A DNA stretch of 64,000 bases from Promethearchaeota archaeon (GTDB lineage Archaea; Asgardarchaeota; Lokiarchaeia; Sigyniarchaeales; SOKP01): assembly GCA_048941625.1 (NCBI GenBank), contig JBHLNK010000002.1, positions 5,098 to 69,097 on the forward strand. The letters run 5' to 3'. Of the stretch, positions 39,024-63,611 are shown in pieces; positions within the stretch are counted from its first letter, which is position 1; each line of letters begins with the position of its first letter. The translations under genes and the position numbers were made by a program. The notes under the pieces were generated by a model that made no database searches, was not told where the DNA came from, and saw nothing but the letters and a program-made list of their open reading frames with translations.

Positions 39024-40514
39024 ATGGAAGCTTCAACAGTTTCAATATATAAGTTAAAAAAAAAGAGTTATCCTAGAATAGCACCTTTTAATCCTAGTGA
39101 ATTTTATCCAGAATATCCATTTAAAGAGATATCTAATAATAAAAACTATATTTATGAGGGCTTTCGGTATTTACTTAATTTAATGGGTTTGGATAAAAAA
39201 AATTGGAACAATAAGGAATGGAATCCATTAGGCGAGATAATTAAGCTTGGAGATTCTGTAGTGATAAAACCAAACTTAGTTTTGGATAATTTACAAAATC
39301 AAGATTGTATTACAACCCATACATCTCTTATTCGTGCAATAATTGATTATGTGATCATAGCTTTAAAAAAAACAGGAGAAATAATTGTAGGAGATGCTTC
39401 ATTACAAAAATGTAACTTCGAAACATTGATCCAATATAACGGTCTTCTAAAAACAATAAATTTTTATAAGTCTAAAGGAATAAATATAAAATTAATAGAT
39501 TTTAGAAGAGAGGAAATGAGAATTAATAAAATTAAGTCTACAAGTTCTGATAAAGGGATTGAGATCGTAAAGCTTGAAGGTGATCCAAAAGGATATAAAG
39601 TAATTAATTTAAAAAAAGGAAGTAATCTGTATAAACTTAGTTTAAATAACGGATATAAAAAATTTAGAGTGACAAATTATGATCCGAAAATAATGAAAAT
39701 GGCGCATAATCAGCTTGATCATAAATATTTAATAAGTAACTCAATTATTCAAGCAGATGTAATAATAAATGTTGCTAAATTTAAATCTCACAGAAAAGCA
39801 GGAATTACAGGGTGTTTAAAGAATTCTATAGGAATTAATGGAAGTAAAGATTGGTTACCTCACCACAGATATGGGGCTTTAAGAGAAGGGGGAGATGAAT
39901 ACTTAAAAAAAAACGCTTCAAAATATTTATATGGTAAATTAAATGATATTGATGATATTTTCCTAATTAAATATACTCCCATTTACAGGTTTTTATACTA
40001 TCCCCTTTTATTTTTAAGGATAGGATTAAGAAAACTGATAAATTTTGTATCTAATGATAAAACTCTTGAAGGAGATTGGCATGGAAATGATACCATTTGG
40101 CGAACAATTGCAGATTTAAATCAAATTCTAATATACAGTGATAAAACAGGTAAAATTAGAGATAAACCCCAAAAAAAAAGGTTATATTTTTGTGATGCTG
40201 TCATTACCGGTCAATCTGAAGGACCACTTTCTCCAATTCCAGTAAAATCAGGAATTATAACAGGAGGATATGACCCATTAATGGTAGATTTCGCAATTGC
40301 AAGTATTATGAACCTAGATTATCAAAAAATTCCCCAATTACTTAAATTATTTAAAATACGAGAACATTCAATTTCAAAATATAAGACAACAGATCTTTTA
40401 ATTATTTCAAATTTCCTAAAATGGAATAATAAGAGATATAATCAATTAACCGAATTTCTAAGTTTTATACCTTCTTATGGTTGGAAAAATATTATTAACA
40501 ATAATTACAAATAA
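39024..40514 (+). CDS. DUF362-family protein
   Basis: VVIKPNLV, TTH, ADVIINVAKFKSHRKAGITGCLKNSIG, EGP, D. Confidence 0.8.
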   Translation: MEASTVSIYKLKKKSYPRIAPFNPSEFYPEYPFKEISNNKNYIYEGFRYLLNLMGLDKKNWNNKEWNPLGEIIKLGDSVVIKPNLVLDNLQNQDCITTHTSLIRAIIDYVIIALKKTGEIIVGDASLQKCNFETLIQYNGLLKTINFYKSKGINIKLIDFRREEMRINKIKSTSSDKGIEIVKLEGDPKGYKVINLKKGSNLYKLSLNNGYKKFRVTNYDPKIMKMAHNQLDHKYLISNSIIQADVIINVAKFKSHRKAGITGCLKNSIGINGSKDWLPHHRYGALREGGDEYLKKNASKYLYGKLNDIDDIFLIKYTPIYRFLYYPLLFLRIGLRKLINFVSNDKTLEGDWHGNDTIWRTIADLNQILIYSDKTGKIRDKPQKKRLYFCDAVITGQSEGPLSPIPVKSGIITGGYDPLMVDFAIASIMNLDYQKIPQLLKLFKIREHSISKYKTTDLLIISNFLKWNNKRYNQLTEFLSFIPSYGWKNIINNNYK

Positions 40515-40540
40515 ATCAAATATAAAATTCACAAAATAAT

Positions 40541-41902
40541 ATGTTTAGAAAATTTTTGTTTTATTTGTATTTAACAAAAGAATTTAGATTACTTTATTTC
40601 AAATTTCTAAGAGAGTATTTCTATATAAAAAGAAATATATATAAATCAATACAATATAACATTTCCATTCAAAAAGAGAGATTATATCGAATTTTAAATC
40701 ATGCTGTCCAAAATGTTCCATATTATCAGAAAATCGCACATGAACGAAATATTGAACTAAATAAGGATAATATTTTTGAAGATTTAAAACAATTCCCTAT
40801 TTTAACTAAGAGTCTATTAAGAAAAAATTGGAAATTACTTCATATAAAATTAAAAAATATTGATTATACAATTAATACCTCAGGAGGAACAACAGGGGAA
40901 CCTGTTAAATTTATTCAAAGTAGAAAATATAATATTCTCAATTTTTGCTCTAAAATTATATTTAACGAAATTGGAGATTATTACCCTGGTGATAAGTTAG
41001 TAAAGTTATGGGGTAATGAAAAGGATATATTAGAGATGACAGAGGGTAAATTTATAGCTTTTGTTAATAAATATTTTAGAAATATTATCTTTCTTAACTC
41101 TTTTAAAATGTCAGATAAAGATATTTTTAGGTATATCAATGAAATTAATCTTAAACGCCCAAAAGTAATTCTAGCTTATGTCCAATCAATTTATGAAGTT
41201 GCTAAATTTATAGAATATAACAAGATTTATATTCATAAATTAAGATCAATAATTACTTCTGCTGGTGTTTTAACTGTTGAAGTGAGACAGTTCATAGAAA
41301 AGATATTTAATACCAATGTATATAATAGATATGGATCAAGAGAGGTCTCTGTAATTGGTTCAAGTTGTAATGAAGATTCGAAGATTCATATTGATATGTA
41401 TAAGAAATATATAGAAGTCTTGGATGAAAACAATACCCCAGTAAAAGAACACAAAATTGGAAACATAATCATAACTGATCTTATTAATTACACAATGCCA
41501 TTAATAAGATATCAAATTGGGGATAGGGGATCGCTAGATTTCTCACAATGTCGTTGTGGAAGAGGACTGATTAGATTAGATAATATAATTGGTAGAGTTG
41601 TAGATATATTTGTAAATGAAAAAGGAGAACGTATCGATGGTGAATATTTTACACATCTGTTCTATTTTAGAGATAATTTAAAAAAATTTCAAGTCATTCA
41701 AGAGAATATAAATTTAATTCGGATTAAACTTGTAACCATAAACAAACTGAAATTAAATGAATCTACTGTAGAGGATATAACTAAGAAGATCAAAATTGTT
41801 ATGGGTCAGAATTGTAATGTTACATTTAATTATTTTAATGACATTGATGCTTCTTCTTCTGGTAAGTATAGATATACAATTTCAAAAATTAAGAATAATT
41901 AA
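40541..41902 (+). CDS. Phenylacetate-CoA-ligase-like (CapK-type) adenylating enzyme
   Basis: VPYY, FPILTK, TSGGTTGEP, YGSRE, MPLIRYQIGD, GR, SGKYR. Confidence 0.85.
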   Translation: MFRKFLFYLYLTKEFRLLYFKFLREYFYIKRNIYKSIQYNISIQKERLYRILNHAVQNVPYYQKIAHERNIELNKDNIFEDLKQFPILTKSLLRKNWKLLHIKLKNIDYTINTSGGTTGEPVKFIQSRKYNILNFCSKIIFNEIGDYYPGDKLVKLWGNEKDILEMTEGKFIAFVNKYFRNIIFLNSFKMSDKDIFRYINEINLKRPKVILAYVQSIYEVAKFIEYNKIYIHKLRSIITSAGVLTVEVRQFIEKIFNTNVYNRYGSREVSVIGSSCNEDSKIHIDMYKKYIEVLDENNTPVKEHKIGNIIITDLINYTMPLIRYQIGDRGSLDFSQCRCGRGLIRLDNIIGRVVDIFVNEKGERIDGEYFTHLFYFRDNLKKFQVIQENINLIRIKLVTINKLKLNESTVEDITKKIKIVMGQNCNVTFNYFNDIDASSSGKYRYTISKIKNN

Positions 41903-47007: not shown

Positions 47008-47847
47008 ATGAACATGCTTCAATGGAGATCTATAAAAAGAAATCTTAAACAAATTAATGCATTGGTAGAAAGAAATATATATATAGAAGCTCGTTTTAAA
47101 ACAGGTCTATTTTTAGCTTTTTTCAGACCATTTCTTCAAATTCTTATGCCCCTTATTGTTTTTGGAACAATTTTCACAATAAGCGAGGATTATCAACTTG
47201 GTTATTGGGAAAGTAATACATTTTTACTTTTTATTATAATTGCTTTTTGTATTCAATATCTTAGACAAATGATTACTAGGTATGTATATACATTTCAACA
47301 TGAAAAATATTGGAAAACTTTACAAGCATTGATGGTTGCACCTTTAAATTATTTCAACATTTTAATTGGATTTTTAATATCAGAACTTGTTTTTATAAGC
47401 ATACCAATTTCTTTTTTTTTAATTTTAGGCTTTATACTTTTCCCTATTTCTTTTTTTCAAGCAATTTTAGTTATAATAATGATATTAGTGATTGCAATAA
47501 CATTTGGATGTATTGGATTAATAATGGGAATTCTAGTAATATCTAGAGAAGGATTATATAAAGCAATTGATATAGGATTAACTTTTATTATCGCATTAAG
47601 CTGTATTAGTTATCCATTGCAGATTTTTCCAGAATTTCTTAGAATTGTTATTATTATAAATCCATTATACTATTTATTTGACCTAGTACGACTAGTTTGG
47701 TTATTAGGATTTGATTCCGCTTTAGCTCTTAATTTTATTACACCAACTCATATAATTATTGTAACTCTAGGTGTAATATGTTTACCCATTATTGCAATAT
47801 ATCTATTTAAAACATTCTATAAAAAATATGGAATTACTGGTTATTAA
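47008..47847 (+). CDS. ABC-2 type transporter permease
   Basis: Six TM segments, EKYWKTL..LMVAP, YP...P, NPLYY. Confidence 0.85.
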   Translation: MNMLQWRSIKRNLKQINALVERNIYIEARFKTGLFLAFFRPFLQILMPLIVFGTIFTISEDYQLGYWESNTFLLFIIIAFCIQYLRQMITRYVYTFQHEKYWKTLQALMVAPLNYFNILIGFLISELVFISIPISFFLILGFILFPISFFQAILVIIMILVIAITFGCIGLIMGILVISREGLYKAIDIGLTFIIALSCISYPLQIFPEFLRIVIIINPLYYLFDLVRLVWLLGFDSALALNFITPTHIIIVTLGVICLPIIAIYLFKTFYKKYGITGY

Positions 47848-47890
47848 TATGAACGAATCTAATCTTTCTGTAGATATAAAAGGCGATGAC

Positions 47891-48811
47891 ATGTCAAAGT
47901 ATGATATTGAGATTTTCAATTTAACTAAAAAGTATTCACTTAAAGGAAAAGGCAAAAAAATCACAGCACTAAATAATATTAATCTAAAAATTAAAAAAGG
48001 TGAGATTTTTGGACTTCTTGGACCTAATGGAGCGGGAAAAACGACTATGGTGTCAATATTAACAACACTAATACAACCAACAAGCGGATATGCAACAATT
48101 CTAGGATACAATATTTTGAAACAACCAAAACTAATTAAAAGGAAAATTGGATTAATGCTTGGAGGGGAAATGATCTATTACAGGCTAACAGGTTATAATA
48201 ATCTAAAATTTTTCTGTAAACTTTACAATATTAAAGACTATAAACTCAAAATTAATAAATTGGCTGAAAAATTTAACTTAACTCAATGGTTAAATCAATA
48301 TGTAGAATATTATTCAACAGGAATGAAAGTTAAATTAGCTTTAGCCCGTGTATTATTAGTTGATCCACAAATATTGTTCTTAGATGAACCAATGTTAGGG
48401 TTGGATCCGAATATAATAGAAGAATTGATTGAAATTTTAATAAATATGAAAAAAACAATATTTCTTACTTCACATCAAATGTATATCGTTCAGAAACTAT
48501 GTGATAGAATAGGTTTTCTTAGAGAAGGAGAAATTATTAAGGTTGATAGTCAACAAAATTTTAAGAAGTTATTACAGGATGAAATAAAATTTCAAATGAA
48601 AGTGAAAGAAGAGAAAAAACAGTTAATTGCTAAATTAAGTTCAATGGATTTTATAAATAATGTTGAGTCTAAGGAGGAAAATATTTATTTTTCCATAATA
48701 AATCAAAAATTTTATCCTAAACTGTTTAATGTACTAAAAAATTTTCAAATTATGCAATTCAATGAATTAGAACCAAGTTTGAATGATATATTTATTAGAT
48801 TAAGTATTTAA
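47891..48811 (+). CDS. ABC transporter ATP-binding protein (DrrA/ABC-2 type)
   Basis: GPNGAGKTT, YSTGM, LFLDEP, SH. Start is probably ATG 47891 (after AGGCGA) or ATG 47849, not 47792. Confidence 0.92.
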   Translation: MSKYDIEIFNLTKKYSLKGKGKKITALNNINLKIKKGEIFGLLGPNGAGKTTMVSILTTLIQPTSGYATILGYNILKQPKLIKRKIGLMLGGEMIYYRLTGYNNLKFFCKLYNIKDYKLKINKLAEKFNLTQWLNQYVEYYSTGMKVKLALARVLLVDPQILFLDEPMLGLDPNIIEELIEILINMKKTIFLTSHQMYIVQKLCDRIGFLREGEIIKVDSQQNFKKLLQDEIKFQMKVKEEKKQLIAKLSSMDFINNVESKEENIYFSIINQKFYPKLFNVLKNFQIMQFNELEPSLNDIFIRLSI

Positions 48812-60078: not shown

Positions 60079-60197
60079 ATGTAAATTTTATTAACATCAA
60101 TTATTTTAACACTATCTTTAAGAGAAGTAATAAAAATATTTTTTAATGAACTTTAATTATATTTAATTAAATATAATTAAAAAATGATAAAAACATT

Positions 60198-60434
60198 ATG
60201 TCAAATGAAGAACATAAAGTCGAATACACTACGGTTTCAATTCCTAAACCTTTAGCAGAGAAAGTAAAAGAACGAATGAAAGGAACAGGTTTTTCTTCTG
60301 TTTCTAGTTATGTAACTTATGTATTGAGACAATTATTATCCTCCATAGAAGAAGAAAGGTCAAAGCAAGCATTTACTAAAGAAGAAGAAGAAAAGGTCAA
60401 AAAAAGACTAAGAGATTTAGGATATATAGATTAA
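60198..60434 (+). CDS. CopG/ribbon-helix-helix protein with C-terminal RLRDLGY tail
   Basis: TTVSIP strand, helix, GFSSVSSYVTYVLR helix, then EEEEKVKKRLRDLGYID. Confidence 0.85.
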   Translation: MSNEEHKVEYTTVSIPKPLAEKVKERMKGTGFSSVSSYVTYVLRQLLSSIEEERSKQAFTKEEEEKVKKRLRDLGYID

Positions 60435-60483
60435 TTAGTTATAATCATTAAAAAGTTTAAGAAAACCGAGGTTTTAATATTAG

Positions 60484-61632
60484 ATGATAGAACCACATGG
60501 AGGCAGATTAATTAGTAAAAATTTACCTAGATTTGAAAAAGAAAGAATAATCAGAGAAATTGATGAATTCAATAAAGTAATTGTCGGACCAGAAACAATA
60601 AAGGTTATTAAGAATATAGCTTTTGGAGTTTTCAGCCCATTAGAGGGATTTATGAATGAGAACGATTATAGTTATTCATTAAATACCATGTATCTAGAAA
60701 ATGATATTGCTTGGCCTTTCCCAATAACTCTAGATGTCTCTGAAGAAGAAATTTATGATATAAAAAGTGATGATCAACTTATTCTAATGGACGATAGAGA
60801 AACTCCTATTGCTTTAATGAATGTAGAAATGATTTACAATTATAGCAAAAAGGAATATGCAAAAAAAACATTTGATACTTTAGATAAAAGTCATCCAGGA
60901 GTTAATAATGTCTTTAGTTATAAAAGCAAACTTATAGGAGGAAAAATTTACTTAATTAACGAACCTAGTCCAGTCTTTCCAAATTTAGATTTAAAGCCAA
61001 TAGAAACAAGAGTACTATTTAAGGAAAAAGGATGGGATAGAATTGTGGCTTTTCAGACTAGAAATCCACCCCATTTGGGACATGAATATATTCAAAAAGC
61101 AGGATTAACGTATGTAGATGGATTATTCATCAATCCAGTAATTGGCAAGAAAAAAAAAGGAGATTTCTTAGATGATGTAATAATTGAGTCATATAAAGCT
61201 CTAATCGAAGAATACTACCCAAAAAATAGAGTTGTATTAAGTACATTTGAGACAGAAATGAGATATGCTGGGCCTAAAGAAGCTATATTCCACGCAATAA
61301 CAAGGAAAAATTTTGGTTGTGATCATATAATCATTGGTCGTGATCATGCAGGAGTGGGTGGTTTTTATGGTCCTTATGATGCACACGATATCTTTGATAA
61401 CTTTCCAGATTTAGGTATTAAACCAATAAAATTCAGATCTTTTTCAAAATGCTCCAAATGTAATTCTGTTGTAAATGATAAAATTTGTCCTCATCCACCA
61501 AAAATGCAGAATTATTTCGCTGGAAGAGAAATCAGAGAAAAATTAAAGAGTGGGATATCTCCTGATCCGGAAGTTATGCGGCCTGAAGTTACAAAAGTAA
61601 TTTTACAATATGAAAATCCTTTTGTAACTTAA
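60484..61632 (+). CDS. sat: Sulfate adenylyltransferase (ATP sulfurylase)
   Basis: PHGG, FSPLEGFM, FQTRNPPHLGHE, MRYAGPKEA, IIGRDHAGVG, Zn site C..C......CPH. Confidence 0.96.
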   Translation: MIEPHGGRLISKNLPRFEKERIIREIDEFNKVIVGPETIKVIKNIAFGVFSPLEGFMNENDYSYSLNTMYLENDIAWPFPITLDVSEEEIYDIKSDDQLILMDDRETPIALMNVEMIYNYSKKEYAKKTFDTLDKSHPGVNNVFSYKSKLIGGKIYLINEPSPVFPNLDLKPIETRVLFKEKGWDRIVAFQTRNPPHLGHEYIQKAGLTYVDGLFINPVIGKKKKGDFLDDVIIESYKALIEEYYPKNRVVLSTFETEMRYAGPKEAIFHAITRKNFGCDHIIIGRDHAGVGGFYGPYDAHDIFDNFPDLGIKPIKFRSFSKCSKCNSVVNDKICPHPPKMQNYFAGREIREKLKSGISPDPEVMRPEVTKVILQYENPFVT

Positions 61633-61660
61633 TCTTCAACCATTCAATAGACTAAAAATT

Positions 61661-63055
61661 ATGATTGTTATGAAGAATAAAAAAAAAATACTCGTTATAG
61701 GTTTAGACTGTGCTACTCCTAAAACTATATTTGAAGATTTCTTGGATGACTGTCCAACATTAAAAATGATGATAAAAAATGGGGTATATGGAAAATTAAG
61801 AACATGTGATCCACCGATTACTATTCCTGCATGGATGGTTATGTCAACTGGTAAGAAAGCGGGGACTCTTGGATTATATGGATTTAGACATAGAAAAGAT
61901 AACTCATATGATGATTACTGGATCGCAACATCAAATAATATAAAAGAGCCAAAGATATGGGATATAATAGCAAAAAAAGGTTTGAAATCCTGTATCTTAG
62001 GGATACCTCCAACATATCCTGTTCAGCCAATAAATGGGTGGGTTGTTTCAGGTTTCATTACTCCTGATATATCGTCAAATTTTACATACCCCTCAGAATT
62101 AAAGAAAGAGATAGAAGAAAATATTGGGAAATATATTATAGATGTGAATTTTAGCGTAGACGACAAATTAGTTTTATTAACAGAGATTTATGAAATGACA
62201 AAAGTTCAATTCAAAACAATAAAGTATCTATTACAAAATAAACAATGGGATTACTTTAAATTCGTAATTATTGGATTAGACAGATTTCATCATGCCTTTT
62301 GGAAATTTTATGATAAAAATCACCCTAAATACAAAACCAATAATCAATTTGAAGGAGAATTAAAGAAATTTTATCAATATTTGGATAAAGAAATTGGAGA
62401 AATATTGAATTTACTGGACGAGAATACAAGTGTAATGGTCGTCTCAGATCATGGTGCAAAAGCTATGAAAGGTTTAATATGTATTAATATGGCTCTTGAA
62501 ACACTAGGTTTATTAAAGTTTAGAAGCAAACCAAAACCTAAAACTAGATTAGCTGATAATGATATTGATTGGTCAAATACCTATGCTTGGGGTTGGGGGG
62601 GATATTATGCAAGAGTTTTTCTTAATGTAGAAGGTAGAGAGCCTAACGGGATTATTAAGCCAAAAAATTACGAAAAAATGAGAGATGAAATAATAGGTAA
62701 AATTAAGACTATAAAAGATAATATGGGTAATTCAATGAATACTATAATTAAGAAACCAGAAGATATATTTGAAGTCGTTAATGGGGATTCACCAGATCTT
62801 ATGGTTTATTTTGATGATTTAAATTGGAGATCTGCTGGTACAGTTGGGTATGATTCAATGTATTTAGATGAAAATGATACTGGTCCTGATGATGCTGTTC
62901 ATGATTGGTTTGGTATTTATATTTTATATGATCCTAAAAAAAAAATAGGGAAAAACTTAGGAATAAAAAGCATATTAGACATTGCTCCAACATCTTTAAA
63001 GATATTAGGTGTTGAAATTCCTAAAGATTTAGAGGGTAATATAATTTATTTTTAA
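61661..63055 (+). CDS. Alkaline-phosphatase-superfamily (NPP/type I phosphodiesterase-like) protein
   Basis: IGLDCA, PPITIPAW (Thr nucleophile), DRFHH, VSDHG, DDAVH. Confidence 0.88.
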   Translation: MIVMKNKKKILVIGLDCATPKTIFEDFLDDCPTLKMMIKNGVYGKLRTCDPPITIPAWMVMSTGKKAGTLGLYGFRHRKDNSYDDYWIATSNNIKEPKIWDIIAKKGLKSCILGIPPTYPVQPINGWVVSGFITPDISSNFTYPSELKKEIEENIGKYIIDVNFSVDDKLVLLTEIYEMTKVQFKTIKYLLQNKQWDYFKFVIIGLDRFHHAFWKFYDKNHPKYKTNNQFEGELKKFYQYLDKEIGEILNLLDENTSVMVVSDHGAKAMKGLICINMALETLGLLKFRSKPKPKTRLADNDIDWSNTYAWGWGGYYARVFLNVEGREPNGIIKPKNYEKMRDEIIGKIKTIKDNMGNSMNTIIKKPEDIFEVVNGDSPDLMVYFDDLNWRSAGTVGYDSMYLDENDTGPDDAVHDWFGIYILYDPKKKIGKNLGIKSILDIAPTSLKILGVEIPKDLEGNIIYF

Positions 63056-63071
63056 AAGAAGAGGAAAAAAT

Positions 63072-63611
63072 ATGGAACATAAAGGATTTACATTATGGTT
63101 TACGGGATTACCTTGTTCAGGTAAAACTGTACTTGCAAATGCTGTTAGAGATGATTTGAAAGCAAAGGGTATGAAAGTAGAAAGACTTGATGGAGATATT
63201 GTACGTAAGAGTTTAACAAAAGATTTAGGCTTTACTGAAGAAGATCGAAATATGAATATTGAGCGAGTAACATTTGTTGCTAAACTCTTAACCCGAAATG
63301 GAGTTGCTGTTCTTGCTTCTTTTGTATCACCTTATAATAAAATAAGACAATATTCTCGAAAAGAGATTGGAGATTTTATTCTTGTCTATGTGAAGTGTTC
63401 AATTGAAGTATGTGAAGATAGAGACGTTAAAGGAATGTATATGAAAGCTAGATTAGGGGAAATTAAAGATTTTACCGGAATTAACCATCCTTTTGAAGAA
63501 CCTCTGAATGCAGATATCATTGTTGAGACTGATAAGCAAAATATAGGTGAAAGTAAAGAAATAATAATAAAAGCATTAGATTCAATGGGTTATTTACCTA
63601 AAGAAATATGA
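63072..63611 (+). CDS. cysC: Adenylyl-sulfate kinase
   Basis: WFTGLPCSGKT, LDGDIVR, LGF..EDR, SP, RDVKGMY, FTGI..PFEEP. Confidence 0.96.
   Translation: MEHKGFTLWFTGLPCSGKTVLANAVRDDLKAKGMKVERLDGDIVRKSLTKDLGFTEEDRNMNIERVTFVAKLLTRNGVAVLASFVSPYNKIRQYSRKEIGDFILVYVKCSIEVCEDRDVKGMYMKARLGEIKDFTGINHPFEEPLNADIIVETDKQNIGESKEIIIKALDSMGYLPKEI

Follow-up and report, generated by a model that had tools for sequence, protein, structure and literature searches.

The window analysed here is a stretch of 64,000 nt from contig JBHLNK010000002.1 of a Promethearchaeota archaeon (positions 5,098-69,097, forward strand), which carries a four-gene operon, RHH-sat-AP-cysC. All four genes lie on the + strand and, according to the open reading frame list, are separated by intergenic gaps of 49, 28 and 16 bp (Table 1). 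The operon is flanked by a glycan locus (36.3-60.1 kb of the window) containing GT1/GT4, GT2 and dTDP-rhamnose-type genes, an ABC-2 exporter and methyltransferases, and glycan loci likewise adjoin the cassette in a genome of the same genus (G132) and in the complete genome G038. The initial annotation had already described both the four co-oriented genes and their position beside glycan genes, and its coordinates proved exact.

Table 1. Positions of the operon genes and the upstream palindrome in the window.
Feature	Position (nt)	Strand	Description
A/T palindrome	60152-60181	none	15+15 nt with TAATTA occurring three times; 17 bp ahead of the RHH start codon
RHH gene	60198-60434	+	CopG-like ribbon-helix-helix; 78 aa ORF
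sat	60484-61632	+	ATP sulfurylase (sulfate adenylyltransferase), N-terminal PUA-like domain; 382 aa ORF
AP gene	61661-63055	+	Cytoplasmic NPP-type alkaline-phosphatase-superfamily enzyme; 464 aa ORF, PF01663
cysC	63072-63611	+	APS kinase; 179 aa ORF

The sat product matches the Pfam profiles PF01747 (E 4e-83) and PF14306 (PUA_2, E 1.5e-43) and reaches 467.8 bits against NCBIfam NF003166, exceeding the cut-off of 387. A single copy of sat was found across the genome. CysC matches PF01583 in Pfam (E 4e-59) and TIGR00455 in NCBIfam (225.5 bits).

The AP gene, whose translation likely starts at the Met of residue 4 (nt 61670), encodes a protein that matches PF01663 in Pfam with 150.7 bits (E 1e-43, cut-off 23) and stays under the cut-off of 25 for PF00884 (22.8 bits). 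No NCBIfam family, no PDB entry by sequence, and none of the P-loop sulfotransferase profiles PF00685, PF13469 and PF03567 was matched. Its Asgard homologues are 67-81% identical, and homologues carry the label 'predicted AlkP superfamily phosphohydrolase/phosphomutase'. In the AF2 model (pLDDT 96.4), the nearest folds are ENPP1/3 and the Xanthomonas NPP (Foldseek probability 1.0, TM 0.56-0.61, 11-15% identity), with which the enzyme shares its fold, a Thr nucleophile and a complete set of metal ligands. Thr54 lies within PPITIPAW, in a column where 55 of 64 aligned homologues have T and four have S, and the ligands D16, D207, H211, D263, H264 and H414 are conserved in 60-62 of the 64. Unlike ENPP1, ENPP3 and the Xanthomonas NPP, however, the AP enzyme is cytoplasmic and contains extra insertions, and its clade is tied to sat/cysC and has a putative docking tail in cis or in trans. 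The first beta strand of the model begins at residue 9, too early for a signal peptide to precede it, and the [CS]xPxR sulfatase motif is absent. These observations bear out the earlier description of an enzyme with a Thr nucleophile and intact metal ligands that lacks a CxPxR motif and a signal peptide. According to profile, active-site residues and fold, it appears to be a member of the NPP family (PF01663).

The small gene heading the cluster encodes a protein for which no Pfam or NCBIfam family was matched at E <= 0.01. RHH_1 (PF01402) is weakly matched in six of 13 orthologues (best E 6e-5), the window's own copy falling short of the cut-off of 20.5 with 14 bits, and NikR N-terminal domains also match weakly (E 0.046-0.6). 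The gene is conserved, with protein identities of 85-91% among Asgard loci and 43-49% in Thermoproteota, and it occupies the place held by a copG-like gene in the Thermococcales layout, the P. yayanosii counterpart being described as a putative copG transcription factor in PMC8268124. The protein ends in a C-terminal tail of 21 residues, terminating in RLRDLGYID, in which all 13 orthologues keep L71, L74, G75 and Y76 unchanged; an acidic linker and this tail together make up residues 56-78 (nt 60363-60431). The upstream palindrome, whose arms are 100% complementary with 0 nt between them, is the only part conserved upstream of the operon in eight orthologous loci, the remaining sequence there having diverged. 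It may serve the RHH protein as operator and promoter element, although A/T palindromes are common at such base composition.

Structure prediction of the AP-RHH complex gave ipSAE values of 0.88, 0.88 and 0.89, and 0.01 for the best control; the mark for such scores, which 58 of 80 solved complexes and 2 of 110 mismatched pairs attain, applies only roughly here because our own alignments were used. The runs share at least 90% of their contacts, with a partner pLDDT of at least 73. In the predicted interface, RHH residues 56-78 face AP residues 53-54, 74-76, 208, 211 and others, and Y76 of the RHH protein contacts T54. The conserved tail therefore seems, on the model, to plug into the active site of the AP enzyme. 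Evidence independent of the complex model is provided by the AP family itself, since an RHH-type tail is fused at the enzyme's own C-terminus in 28 of 150 distant AP homologues, with the Tyr present in 28 of 28. No tail was fused in cis among 120 Asgard-type or 120 Thermoproteota-type AP proteins, where it is carried by the RHH protein. As RHH proteins retain the tail in cassettes without AP, the AP enzyme may not be its sole partner.

The association of the AP gene with sulfate activation is conserved across archaeal phyla. Among 14 fetched loci from Asgard archaea and Thermoproteota, AP is flanked by sat and/or cysC in 12, and the order RHH-sat-AP-cysC is colinear in 10. Sat is present in 50 of 51 AP-carrying genomes within a sample of 151 Asgard genomes, and the exception is 75% complete. 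Natural fusions were found as well, namely Sat-AP (P0134), AP-pyruvate kinase-Sat (P0158), NTP-transferase-AP (P0153) and CysC-AP, the partners in the first three being counted as PPi-releasing or ATP-cycling enzymes; other members of the family are fused to a GT2 or to a methyltransferase. A neighbourhood link between AP and sat/cysC, suggested as a check in the initial annotation, is thus supported. In G038, the cassette is flanked by two further PF01663 paralogues and two GT2 genes, and no canonical sulfotransferase was seen in this complete genome. In G132, the glycan locus adjoining the cassette encodes four canonical sulfotransferases together with GT4, GT2 and a flippase.

By gene content and order, the operon is the Asgard version of a known archaeal sulfate-activation cassette. 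The P. yayanosii cluster PYCH_17520-17560 is reported to comprise copG, ATP sulfurylase, DHH pApase, type I phosphodiesterase/nucleotide pyrophosphatase and APS kinase genes (PMC8268124), and TON_1704-1707 of T. onnurineus is presented as the Thermococcales sulfate-activation cluster (PMC4463584). Similar to these, the window has sat and cysC co-oriented in one cluster, and a putatively copG-like small gene, sat, an NPP-type gene and the APS kinase gene follow in the same order, with the PF01663-type gene directly upstream of the last. Unlike the five-gene Thermococcales cluster, the window cassette consists of four genes with only 28 bp between sat and AP, and it adjoins a glycan locus. A tblastn search with two cassette-type DHH proteins (E <= 1e-3) gave no DHH pApase match in the genome, where otherwise just two weak IMPase-family matches were seen. 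The five-gene layout was found at loci L025 and L035, whose AP enzymes are 42% and 58% identical to that of the window, and these loci therefore connect the four-gene layout with the published one; the DHH pApase gene also occurs at the related locus L031.

By Pfam family, annotation wording and synteny, the window AP is a probable counterpart of TON_1705 and PYCH_17550; the homologue searches returned no Thermococcales sequence. The likeness to TON_1705 lies in operon position and in Pfam family, the latter by way of the PYCH_17550 annotation, while TON_1705 is an assayed enzyme and the Asgard AP is known here from sequence and model. Degradation of PPi by the NPP-type member was a speculation in PMC8268124. 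TON_1705 is termed a pyrophosphatase in PMC4463584, with reference to Lee et al. 2009, and Table 1 of PMC9653972 lists it as an inorganic pyrophosphatase with a kcat of 2.1 per s and a Km of 18.8 uM. The same table gives a kcat of about 3e4 per s for Ton1914, the family I pyrophosphatase of that organism, which is ~10,000-fold above TON_1705, and the physiological substrate of TON_1705 may thus be something other than PPi. Because the cassette has been published and TON_1705 assayed, the proposal of an undescribed route cannot be maintained. The new point of our analysis is the tail of the RHH protein, which the predicted complex places in the AP active site; neither the tail nor its predicted docking is mentioned in the accessible portions of PMC8268124 and PMC4463584.

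Genome-wide searches placed neither a P-loop sulfotransferase nor a PAPS reductase on the contig of the window, as the initial annotation had stated for the window. Its suggestion that a canonical sulfotransferase is missing does not extend to the whole genome, whose only P-loop sulfotransferase match (PF13469, 85 bits) lies on contig C109 adjoining a GT2 gene. PF13469 sulfotransferases occur in 20 of 50 Asgard genomes with both Sat and AP versus 21 of 24 with Sat and without AP, counts that are not independent because the genomes compared are related. Among the 31 AP-carrying genomes without PF13469, one has a PF00685 match and one a PF03567 match, and AP without a PF13469 match is seen in at least eight Asgard families. 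In genomes with Sat and without AP, sat adjoins sulfotransferase genes. Moreover, a 195-aa sulfotransferase (PF00685 28.4 bits, PF13469 29.2 bits) fills the AP slot in RHH-Sat-DHH-X-CysC cassettes (L031-L032), and in G143 the RHH gene is directly followed by a sulfotransferase-like gene. Five sulfotransferase-less genomes that were examined hold 1-8 PF00884 genes each, which could be the consumers there.

Our leading explanation, held with middling confidence, is that the cassette is a PAPS supply module in which the AP enzyme probably serves as a PPi-removing helper and not as a new sulfotransferase. This explanation builds on the gene identities, the conserved linkage, a tail that is conserved both in cis and in trans, and a complex whose prediction passed its controls. 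It is also favoured by the published cluster and the TON_1705 assay, the five-gene loci, the fusions and the canonical sulfotransferases of this genome and G132. Sat forms APS and PPi from sulfate and ATP, and the AP enzyme, judging from its position, its family and the assayed Thermococcus counterpart, may hydrolyze PPi at the two-metal/Thr54 site and thereby pull the unfavourable Sat step. CysC phosphorylates APS to PAPS, which would be spent by sulfotransferases encoded elsewhere, the candidate here being the P-loop enzyme next to a GT2 on C109, with sulfated surface glycans as the likely output. The RHH protein is presumed to regulate the operon and probably binds the palindrome, while its tail is predicted to dock in the active-site cleft with Tyr76 on Thr54. 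Mutual titration could result, the RHH protein plugging AP or AP sequestering the RHH protein, with substrate competing with the tail; its direction is presumptive. A physical tie between PPi removal and ATP sulfurylase has a parallel in the ATP sulfurylase-inorganic pyrophosphatase fusions of stramenopiles and haptophytes (PMC2275785), similar to the Sat-AP fusions; however, the eukaryotic fusions are described there with inorganic pyrophosphatase, not with an alkaline-phosphatase fold. The genome also encodes a family I pyrophosphatase and two membrane pyrophosphatases, which would make a dedicated one redundant in bulk terms.

Several observations speak against pyrophosphatase as the role of AP, including the low kcat of TON_1705, the small share of PF13469 among genomes with Sat and AP, the sulfotransferase in the AP slot and the context in G038. 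In addition, an enzyme of 460 aa with a large, conserved, peptide-taking cleft exceeds the needs of PPi hydrolysis.

Alternatively, the AP enzyme might itself consume PAPS or APS as a new NPP-branch transferase, passing sulfate or an adenylyl group via Thr54 to a glycan, to a lipid, or to RHH Tyr76 as a PAPS-sensing switch, an extension of the sulfate-transfer idea of the initial annotation that we regard as rather unlikely. Such a role is possible given the uneven PF13469 counts and the sulfotransferase in the AP slot of sister cassettes, and it also accords with the AP-bearing families without PF13469, the single finds of PF00685 and of PF03567 among the 31 AP-carrying genomes without it, the G143 gene pair, and the fusions to GT2 and a methyltransferase. 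Further AP/sulfatase-family paralogues, GT2, Sat-CysC and CysQ-type genes accompany AP in G038 as well as at soil metagenome loci. The PAP phosphatase encoded in five-gene cassettes implies a PAP-forming step, and section 3.3 of PMC8268124 reports that no sulfotransferase or sulfite-to-sulfide enzyme was identified in P. yayanosii. A precedent within the superfamily is offered by Agl30 (VNG1056C) and Agl31 (VNG1057C), sulfatase-like N-glycan sulfotransferases with a role in archaeal glycan synthesis in Halobacterium salinarum, as concluded from deletion and heterologous expression rather than from an enzyme assay (PMC11980604). However, Agl30/31 belong to the sulfatase branch, whereas the window AP falls under the PF00884 cut-off, and the sulfate donor is not addressed in PMC11980604, in which 'PAPS' occurs 0 times. 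The sole recorded assay on a cassette enzyme is PPi hydrolysis, canonical sulfotransferases are encoded in the window's genome and beside the cassette in G132, the PF00884 genes might be consumers in sulfotransferase-less genomes, and the counts come from related genomes. To our knowledge, and in the literature searched, no Thr-nucleophile NPP-branch enzyme transfers sulfate. That the invariant Tyr of the tail, which the RHH protein supplies in archaea and which is fused in cis in many other lineages, acts as acceptor or carrier at an NPP-fold enzyme consuming PAPS/APS is doubtful too, although this Tyr is predicted on the nucleophile and is kept in every cis tail; if true, it would amount to a novel type of sulfotransferase together with a sensor for activated sulfate that is built on a protein tyrosine.

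Hydrolysis of PAP, PAPS or APS by the AP enzyme, as by-product removal or as a safety valve that the RHH tail would keep shut until needed, is quite improbable. The enzyme has the fold and active site of nucleotide pyrophosphatases/phosphodiesterases, the four-gene cassette and its genome lack a detected DHH pApase, and a plug in the active site would suit an enzyme able to destroy the pathway's own product. However, AP and the DHH pApase coexist at L025 and L035, so AP is not simply a substitute for the latter, and hydrolyzing APS or PAPS would be wasteful within an operon that makes them. PAP/PAPS recycling, which the initial annotation offered as its alternative, is likewise conceivable. 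It is very unlikely that assimilatory sulfate reduction (PAPS to sulfite to sulfide), rather than sulfation, is the purpose of the cassette, even though PMC8268124 and PMC4463584 give the cluster a sulfate-assimilation ('assimilatory sulfate reduction') name and a PF01507-family protein of about 650 aa is common among Asgard genomes (105 of 151 overall, and 25 of the 31 AP-carrying genomes without PF13469). The best PF01507 score in the window's genome is 17.7 bits, and none exceeds the cut-off of 22.5; in family f1, one of 25 sampled genomes has a match. Since the protein is also found in Sat-less families, such as f3 (4 of 4 genomes, with Sat in 0 of 4), it is no specific PAPS sink, and the cassettes beside glycan loci likewise argue against assimilation.

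Finally, the C-terminus of CysC, ending in LDSMGYLPKEI, bears a loose likeness to the RHH tail. Of the genome's 4535 ORFs, 3 carry the motif L..[LMIV]GY[ILV] near the C-terminus, two of them encoding the RHH protein and CysC and the third an unrelated hydrophobic protein, and the aromatic residue of the CysC tail is Y or F among orthologues.

The RHH-sat-AP-cysC cassette, which encodes an RHH protein, ATP sulfurylase (Sat), an alkaline-phosphatase-superfamily (AP) enzyme and APS kinase (CysC), was recovered by ORF listing as four co-oriented genes separated by gaps of 49, 28 and 16 bp. The AP enzyme is an NPP-type PF01663 protein, which scores 22.8 bits against PF00884 (cut-off 25) in a Pfam search, and NCBIfam placed neither it nor the RHH protein in any family. 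The features ascribed to it in the initial annotation hold: the nucleophile Thr54 and six metal ligands (D16, D207, H211, D263, H264 and H414) are each kept in 55-62 of 64 homologues, and the [CS]xPxR sulfatase motif is absent. As well, the first strand of the AF2 model (pLDDT 96.4) starts at residue 9, and the enzyme therefore has no signal peptide. The folds nearest to this model are ENPP1/3 and Xanthomonas NPP (11-15% identity, TM 0.56-0.61), while a search of the PDB by sequence returned no match. The one paper found for COG3379 is unrelated to the AP enzyme, and a paper on sulfate assimilation in ANME is silent on it.

Coordinates of the cassette and of related features in the window and in comparison loci (L031, L032 and L119)
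Feature	Location	Strand	Description
RHH gene	60198-60434	+	78-aa ORF, weak RHH_1 match
sat (ATP sulfurylase)	60484-61632	+	PF01747 E 4e-83, plus PUA-like domain
AP enzyme	61661-63055	+	PF01663 E 1e-43
cysC (APS kinase)	63072-63611	+	PF01583 E 4e-59
Perfect 15+15 nt palindrome	60152-60181		three TAATTA units, just upstream of RHH gene
Minimal sulfotransferase-family protein	L031 4057-4644; L032 3538-4125		195 aa, in AP slot between DHH pApase and CysC genes
Tandem PF01663 paralogues	L119 204-1781, 2194-3780 (G038)		525 and 528 aa, directly upstream of five-gene cassette, beside two GT2 genes

A PAPS-making operon of this kind is itself ordinary and already in print. The P. yayanosii cluster is described as copG, ATP sulfurylase, DHH pApase, a type I phosphodiesterase/nucleotide pyrophosphatase and APS kinase, and the authors report no known PAPS consumer and speculate that the NPP-type member degrades PPi (PMC8268124). 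According to PMC4463584, citing Lee et al. 2009, TON_1704-1707 of T. onnurineus encode APS kinase, pyrophosphatase, PAP phosphatase and ATP sulfurylase. TON_1705 is listed as working best at pH 9.5, with a kcat of 2.1 per s and a Km of 18.8 uM; the kcat given for Ton1914 from the same organism is about 3e4 per s (PMC9653972 Table 1). The AP enzyme is presumably the counterpart of TON_1705, judged by family, annotation and synteny rather than by sequence alignment. The five-gene form found at two comparison loci (L025 and L035) bridges the four-gene layout and the Thermococcales layout. What is known of the AP enzyme's physiological role comes from a single assay of pyrophosphatase activity in vitro, which gave a modest kcat for an enzyme of a different phylum.

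The feature of the cassette that is unreported is the C-terminal tail of the RHH protein (residues 56-78), which is predicted, with good support, to dock on the catalytic threonine of the AP enzyme. The tail follows the module F-[ST]-x-E-E-E-x-x-[VI]-x-x-R-L-x-x-L-G-Y-[IL], with L71, L74, G75 and Y76 invariant in all 13 sequences. Searched as a profile against the PDB, the RHH proteins matched NikR-type entries only weakly. Predictions of the AP-RHH complex reached ipSAE values of 0.88, 0.88 and 0.89 against 0.01 for the best control; the mark applied, which is rough here since custom alignments were used, is one that 58 of 80 solved complexes attain, as do 2 of 110 mismatched pairs. At least 90% of the contacts are common to the runs, and the pLDDT of the partner is at least 73. 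In the predicted complex, residues 56-78 occupy the cleft of the active site, where Y76 contacts T54, and L74 contacts R208 and H211. Conservation is 0.64 at the predicted interface and 0.50 elsewhere in the AP enzyme, a difference not counted as support since the interface includes the active site.

When a module is part of the enzyme in certain lineages and lies on the adjacent gene in others, a physical partnership is the classical reading. Among 150 representatives of the wider AP family, 28 carry the tail at their own C-terminus behind a linker, all 28 with the tyrosine, including a CysC-AP fusion (P0141) and an AP-pyruvate kinase fusion (P0213); away from the C-terminus, just two copies of the core motif are present in 71,876 residues. 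The AF2 model of one such homologue has a disordered linker (pLDDT below 50) followed by a tail helix (pLDDT 71-80). No tail was found at the enzyme's own end in 120 Asgard-type and 120 Thermoproteota-type proteins. The tail is thus in cis in some lineages and on the RHH protein in others, which points to a physical AP-RHH partnership, with the caveat that it is also kept on RHH proteins of cassettes lacking AP. Such a link would couple the active site with no intermediary to a predicted transcription factor, acting as a feedback switch or else hinting at the real substrate, and it is here that the value of follow-up lies. The palindrome upstream of the RHH gene, the only conserved block among eight orthologous and otherwise diverged upstream regions, is likely an operator and/or promoter element.

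A relaxed tail motif lies near the C-terminus of 3 of the 4535 ORFs in the source genome, namely the RHH protein, CysC and one unrelated hydrophobic protein. The CysC C-terminus (...LDSMGYLPKEI) resembles the RHH tail; it was set aside as a second docking tail, because orthologues carry Y or F as the aromatic residue and the motif fades in Thermoproteota. In addition, further small proteins, about 67-75 aa long and with a ...RL[KR]xLGY[IL] tail, adjoin the cassette at two Thermofilaceae loci (L019 2458-2661, minus strand; L020 7908-8114), and a distant one lies by ABC-ATPase and CobW-type genes in another comparison genome (G038:C1:530366-530581).

The closest relatives of the AP enzyme (67-81% identity) are labelled as several Asgard lineages. 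Among 14 loci taken from species-representative genomes, ten are colinear RHH-sat-AP-cysC, one is cut but retains AP-cysC, one (L025, Pyrodictiaceae) has the order RHH-sat-DHH-AP and an oppositely oriented cysC, and two hold AP without cassette neighbours. One of these two is fragmentary and lies where its contig starts, and Sat was not found in the 1.0-Mb assembly of the other (L024), the lone complete locus without linkage. Across a sample of 151 Asgard genomes (72 of high quality), an AP orthologue is present in 51 (24 of the 72), Sat in 74 and an RHH match, at a best E below 1e-15, in 61. The 51 genomes with AP have Sat in 50 cases and the RHH gene in 49, and the missing cases come from contig ends or from a 75%-complete genome. 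The enzyme is connected with the pathway by natural fusions (Sat-AP, CysC-AP and AP-pyruvate kinase-Sat), and NTP-transferase-AP, AP-GT2 and AP-methyltransferase fusions also occur. A metagenome scan built on an eight-row alignment gave 80 fetched loci with homologues 40-45% identical to the AP enzyme, of which 12 had cysC and seven sat inside the fetched flank; by crude ORF calling, recurrent neighbours were a 623-aa PF00884 protein (24 loci), Sat-CysC fusions (nine), a CysQ-type phosphatase (seven) and GT2 (five).

The initial annotation had proposed a sulfation system with no canonical sulfotransferase, in which the AP enzyme itself transfers sulfate from PAPS or APS to yield sulfated surface glycans, or alternatively recycles PAP/PAPS. 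Its observations were confirmed, and its interpretation is partly supported. Within the 3.65-Mb, 176-contig source assembly no PAPS reductase scored above cut-off, as it had noted for the window, but contig C109 encodes a 363-aa PF13469/PF00685 sulfotransferase (85 bits), adjoining GT2 and radical-SAM genes. In G132, a genome of the same genus, the cassette abuts a glycan locus with four canonical sulfotransferases, GT4, GT2, a flippase-type protein and a methyltransferase. The cassette therefore feeds ordinary sulfotransferases in this lineage; surface-glycan sulfation as a general proposal has good support, and some Asgard archaea probably carry it out.

Many cassette-bearing genomes nevertheless show no known PAPS consumer. 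PF13469 matches occur in 21 of 24 Asgard genomes with Sat and no AP against 20 of 50 with both, counts that overstate independence because the genomes are related to one another. The 31 AP-bearing genomes without PF13469 have PF00685 in one, PF03567 in one and PF01507 in 25. A roughly 650-aa protein that matches PF01507 strongly (e.g., G038:C1:1578916-1579443) is found in 105 of the 151 genomes, with or without Sat, and is nearly absent from the family of the source genome (1 of 25); it was rejected as the PAPS sink of sulfotransferase-less genomes, being equally present in Sat-less families, and its role is probably not PAPS reduction. Five genomes without PF13469, PF00685, PF03567 and PF01507 have 1-8 PF00884 genes each. 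The source genome has five PF00884 sulfatase-family matches, on contigs C43, C82, C169 and C140 and none on the contig of the window, which by the Agl30/31 precedent are candidate sulfatase-fold sulfotransferases or possibly true sulfatases.

Variants of the cassette also bear on the AP slot. In one genus (g22) and one other family the order is RHH-Sat-DHH-X-CysC, where X, a 195-aa sulfotransferase (PF00685, 28.4 bits), replaces AP; a second copy in genome G019 is RHH-Sat-CysC, and in G143 a sulfotransferase-like gene comes after the RHH gene. No canonical sulfotransferase was found in the complete genome G038, where two extra PF01663 paralogues and two GT2 genes, together with genes for an epimerase and an FkbM methyltransferase, flank the five-gene form. 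These paralogues share 29-30% identity with the AP enzyme and end in a lysine-rich extension, not an LGY tail; the source genome has no orthologue of them.

Taken together, we give about an even chance to a reading in which the AP enzyme is a helper that removes PPi and the RHH tail is a regulatory plug. The TON_1705 assay, the thermodynamics of PPi removal, the fusions with PPi-releasing and ATP-cycling enzymes, and the G132 sulfotransferases beside the cassette all count for it, and eukaryotic ATPS-PPase fusions offer a precedent for PPi removal at ATP sulfurylase (PMC2275785); the modest kcat and three other pyrophosphatases encoded in the source genome count against it. That the enzyme is instead a transferase consuming PAPS or APS appears unlikely, although the skewed co-occurrence of AP and sulfotransferases across Sat-bearing Asgard genomes, the swapping of a sulfotransferase into the AP slot of sister cassettes, the AP-family expansions in glycan loci of genomes without sulfotransferase, the precedent of Agl30/31 (PMC11980604) and the invariant tyrosine predicted on the nucleophile all speak for it. 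Hydrolysis of PAP, PAPS or APS by the AP enzyme we regard as quite improbable.

Finally, the glycan locus adjoining the operon was confirmed, as the 24 kb leftward hold GT1/GT4, GT2 and rhamnose-type genes, an ABC-2 exporter and methyltransferases. Also encoded in this locus, at 39024-41902 of the window, are a DUF362 protein of 496 aa and one of 453 aa whose AMP-binding match stays below threshold (25.2 bits, cut-off 29.9). In the middle of the locus, at 47008-48811, an ABC-2 permease is paired with an ATPase and a DrrA-type C-terminal domain is present; the pair looks like a Wzm/Wzt-type polysaccharide exporter, notable for an archaeon.
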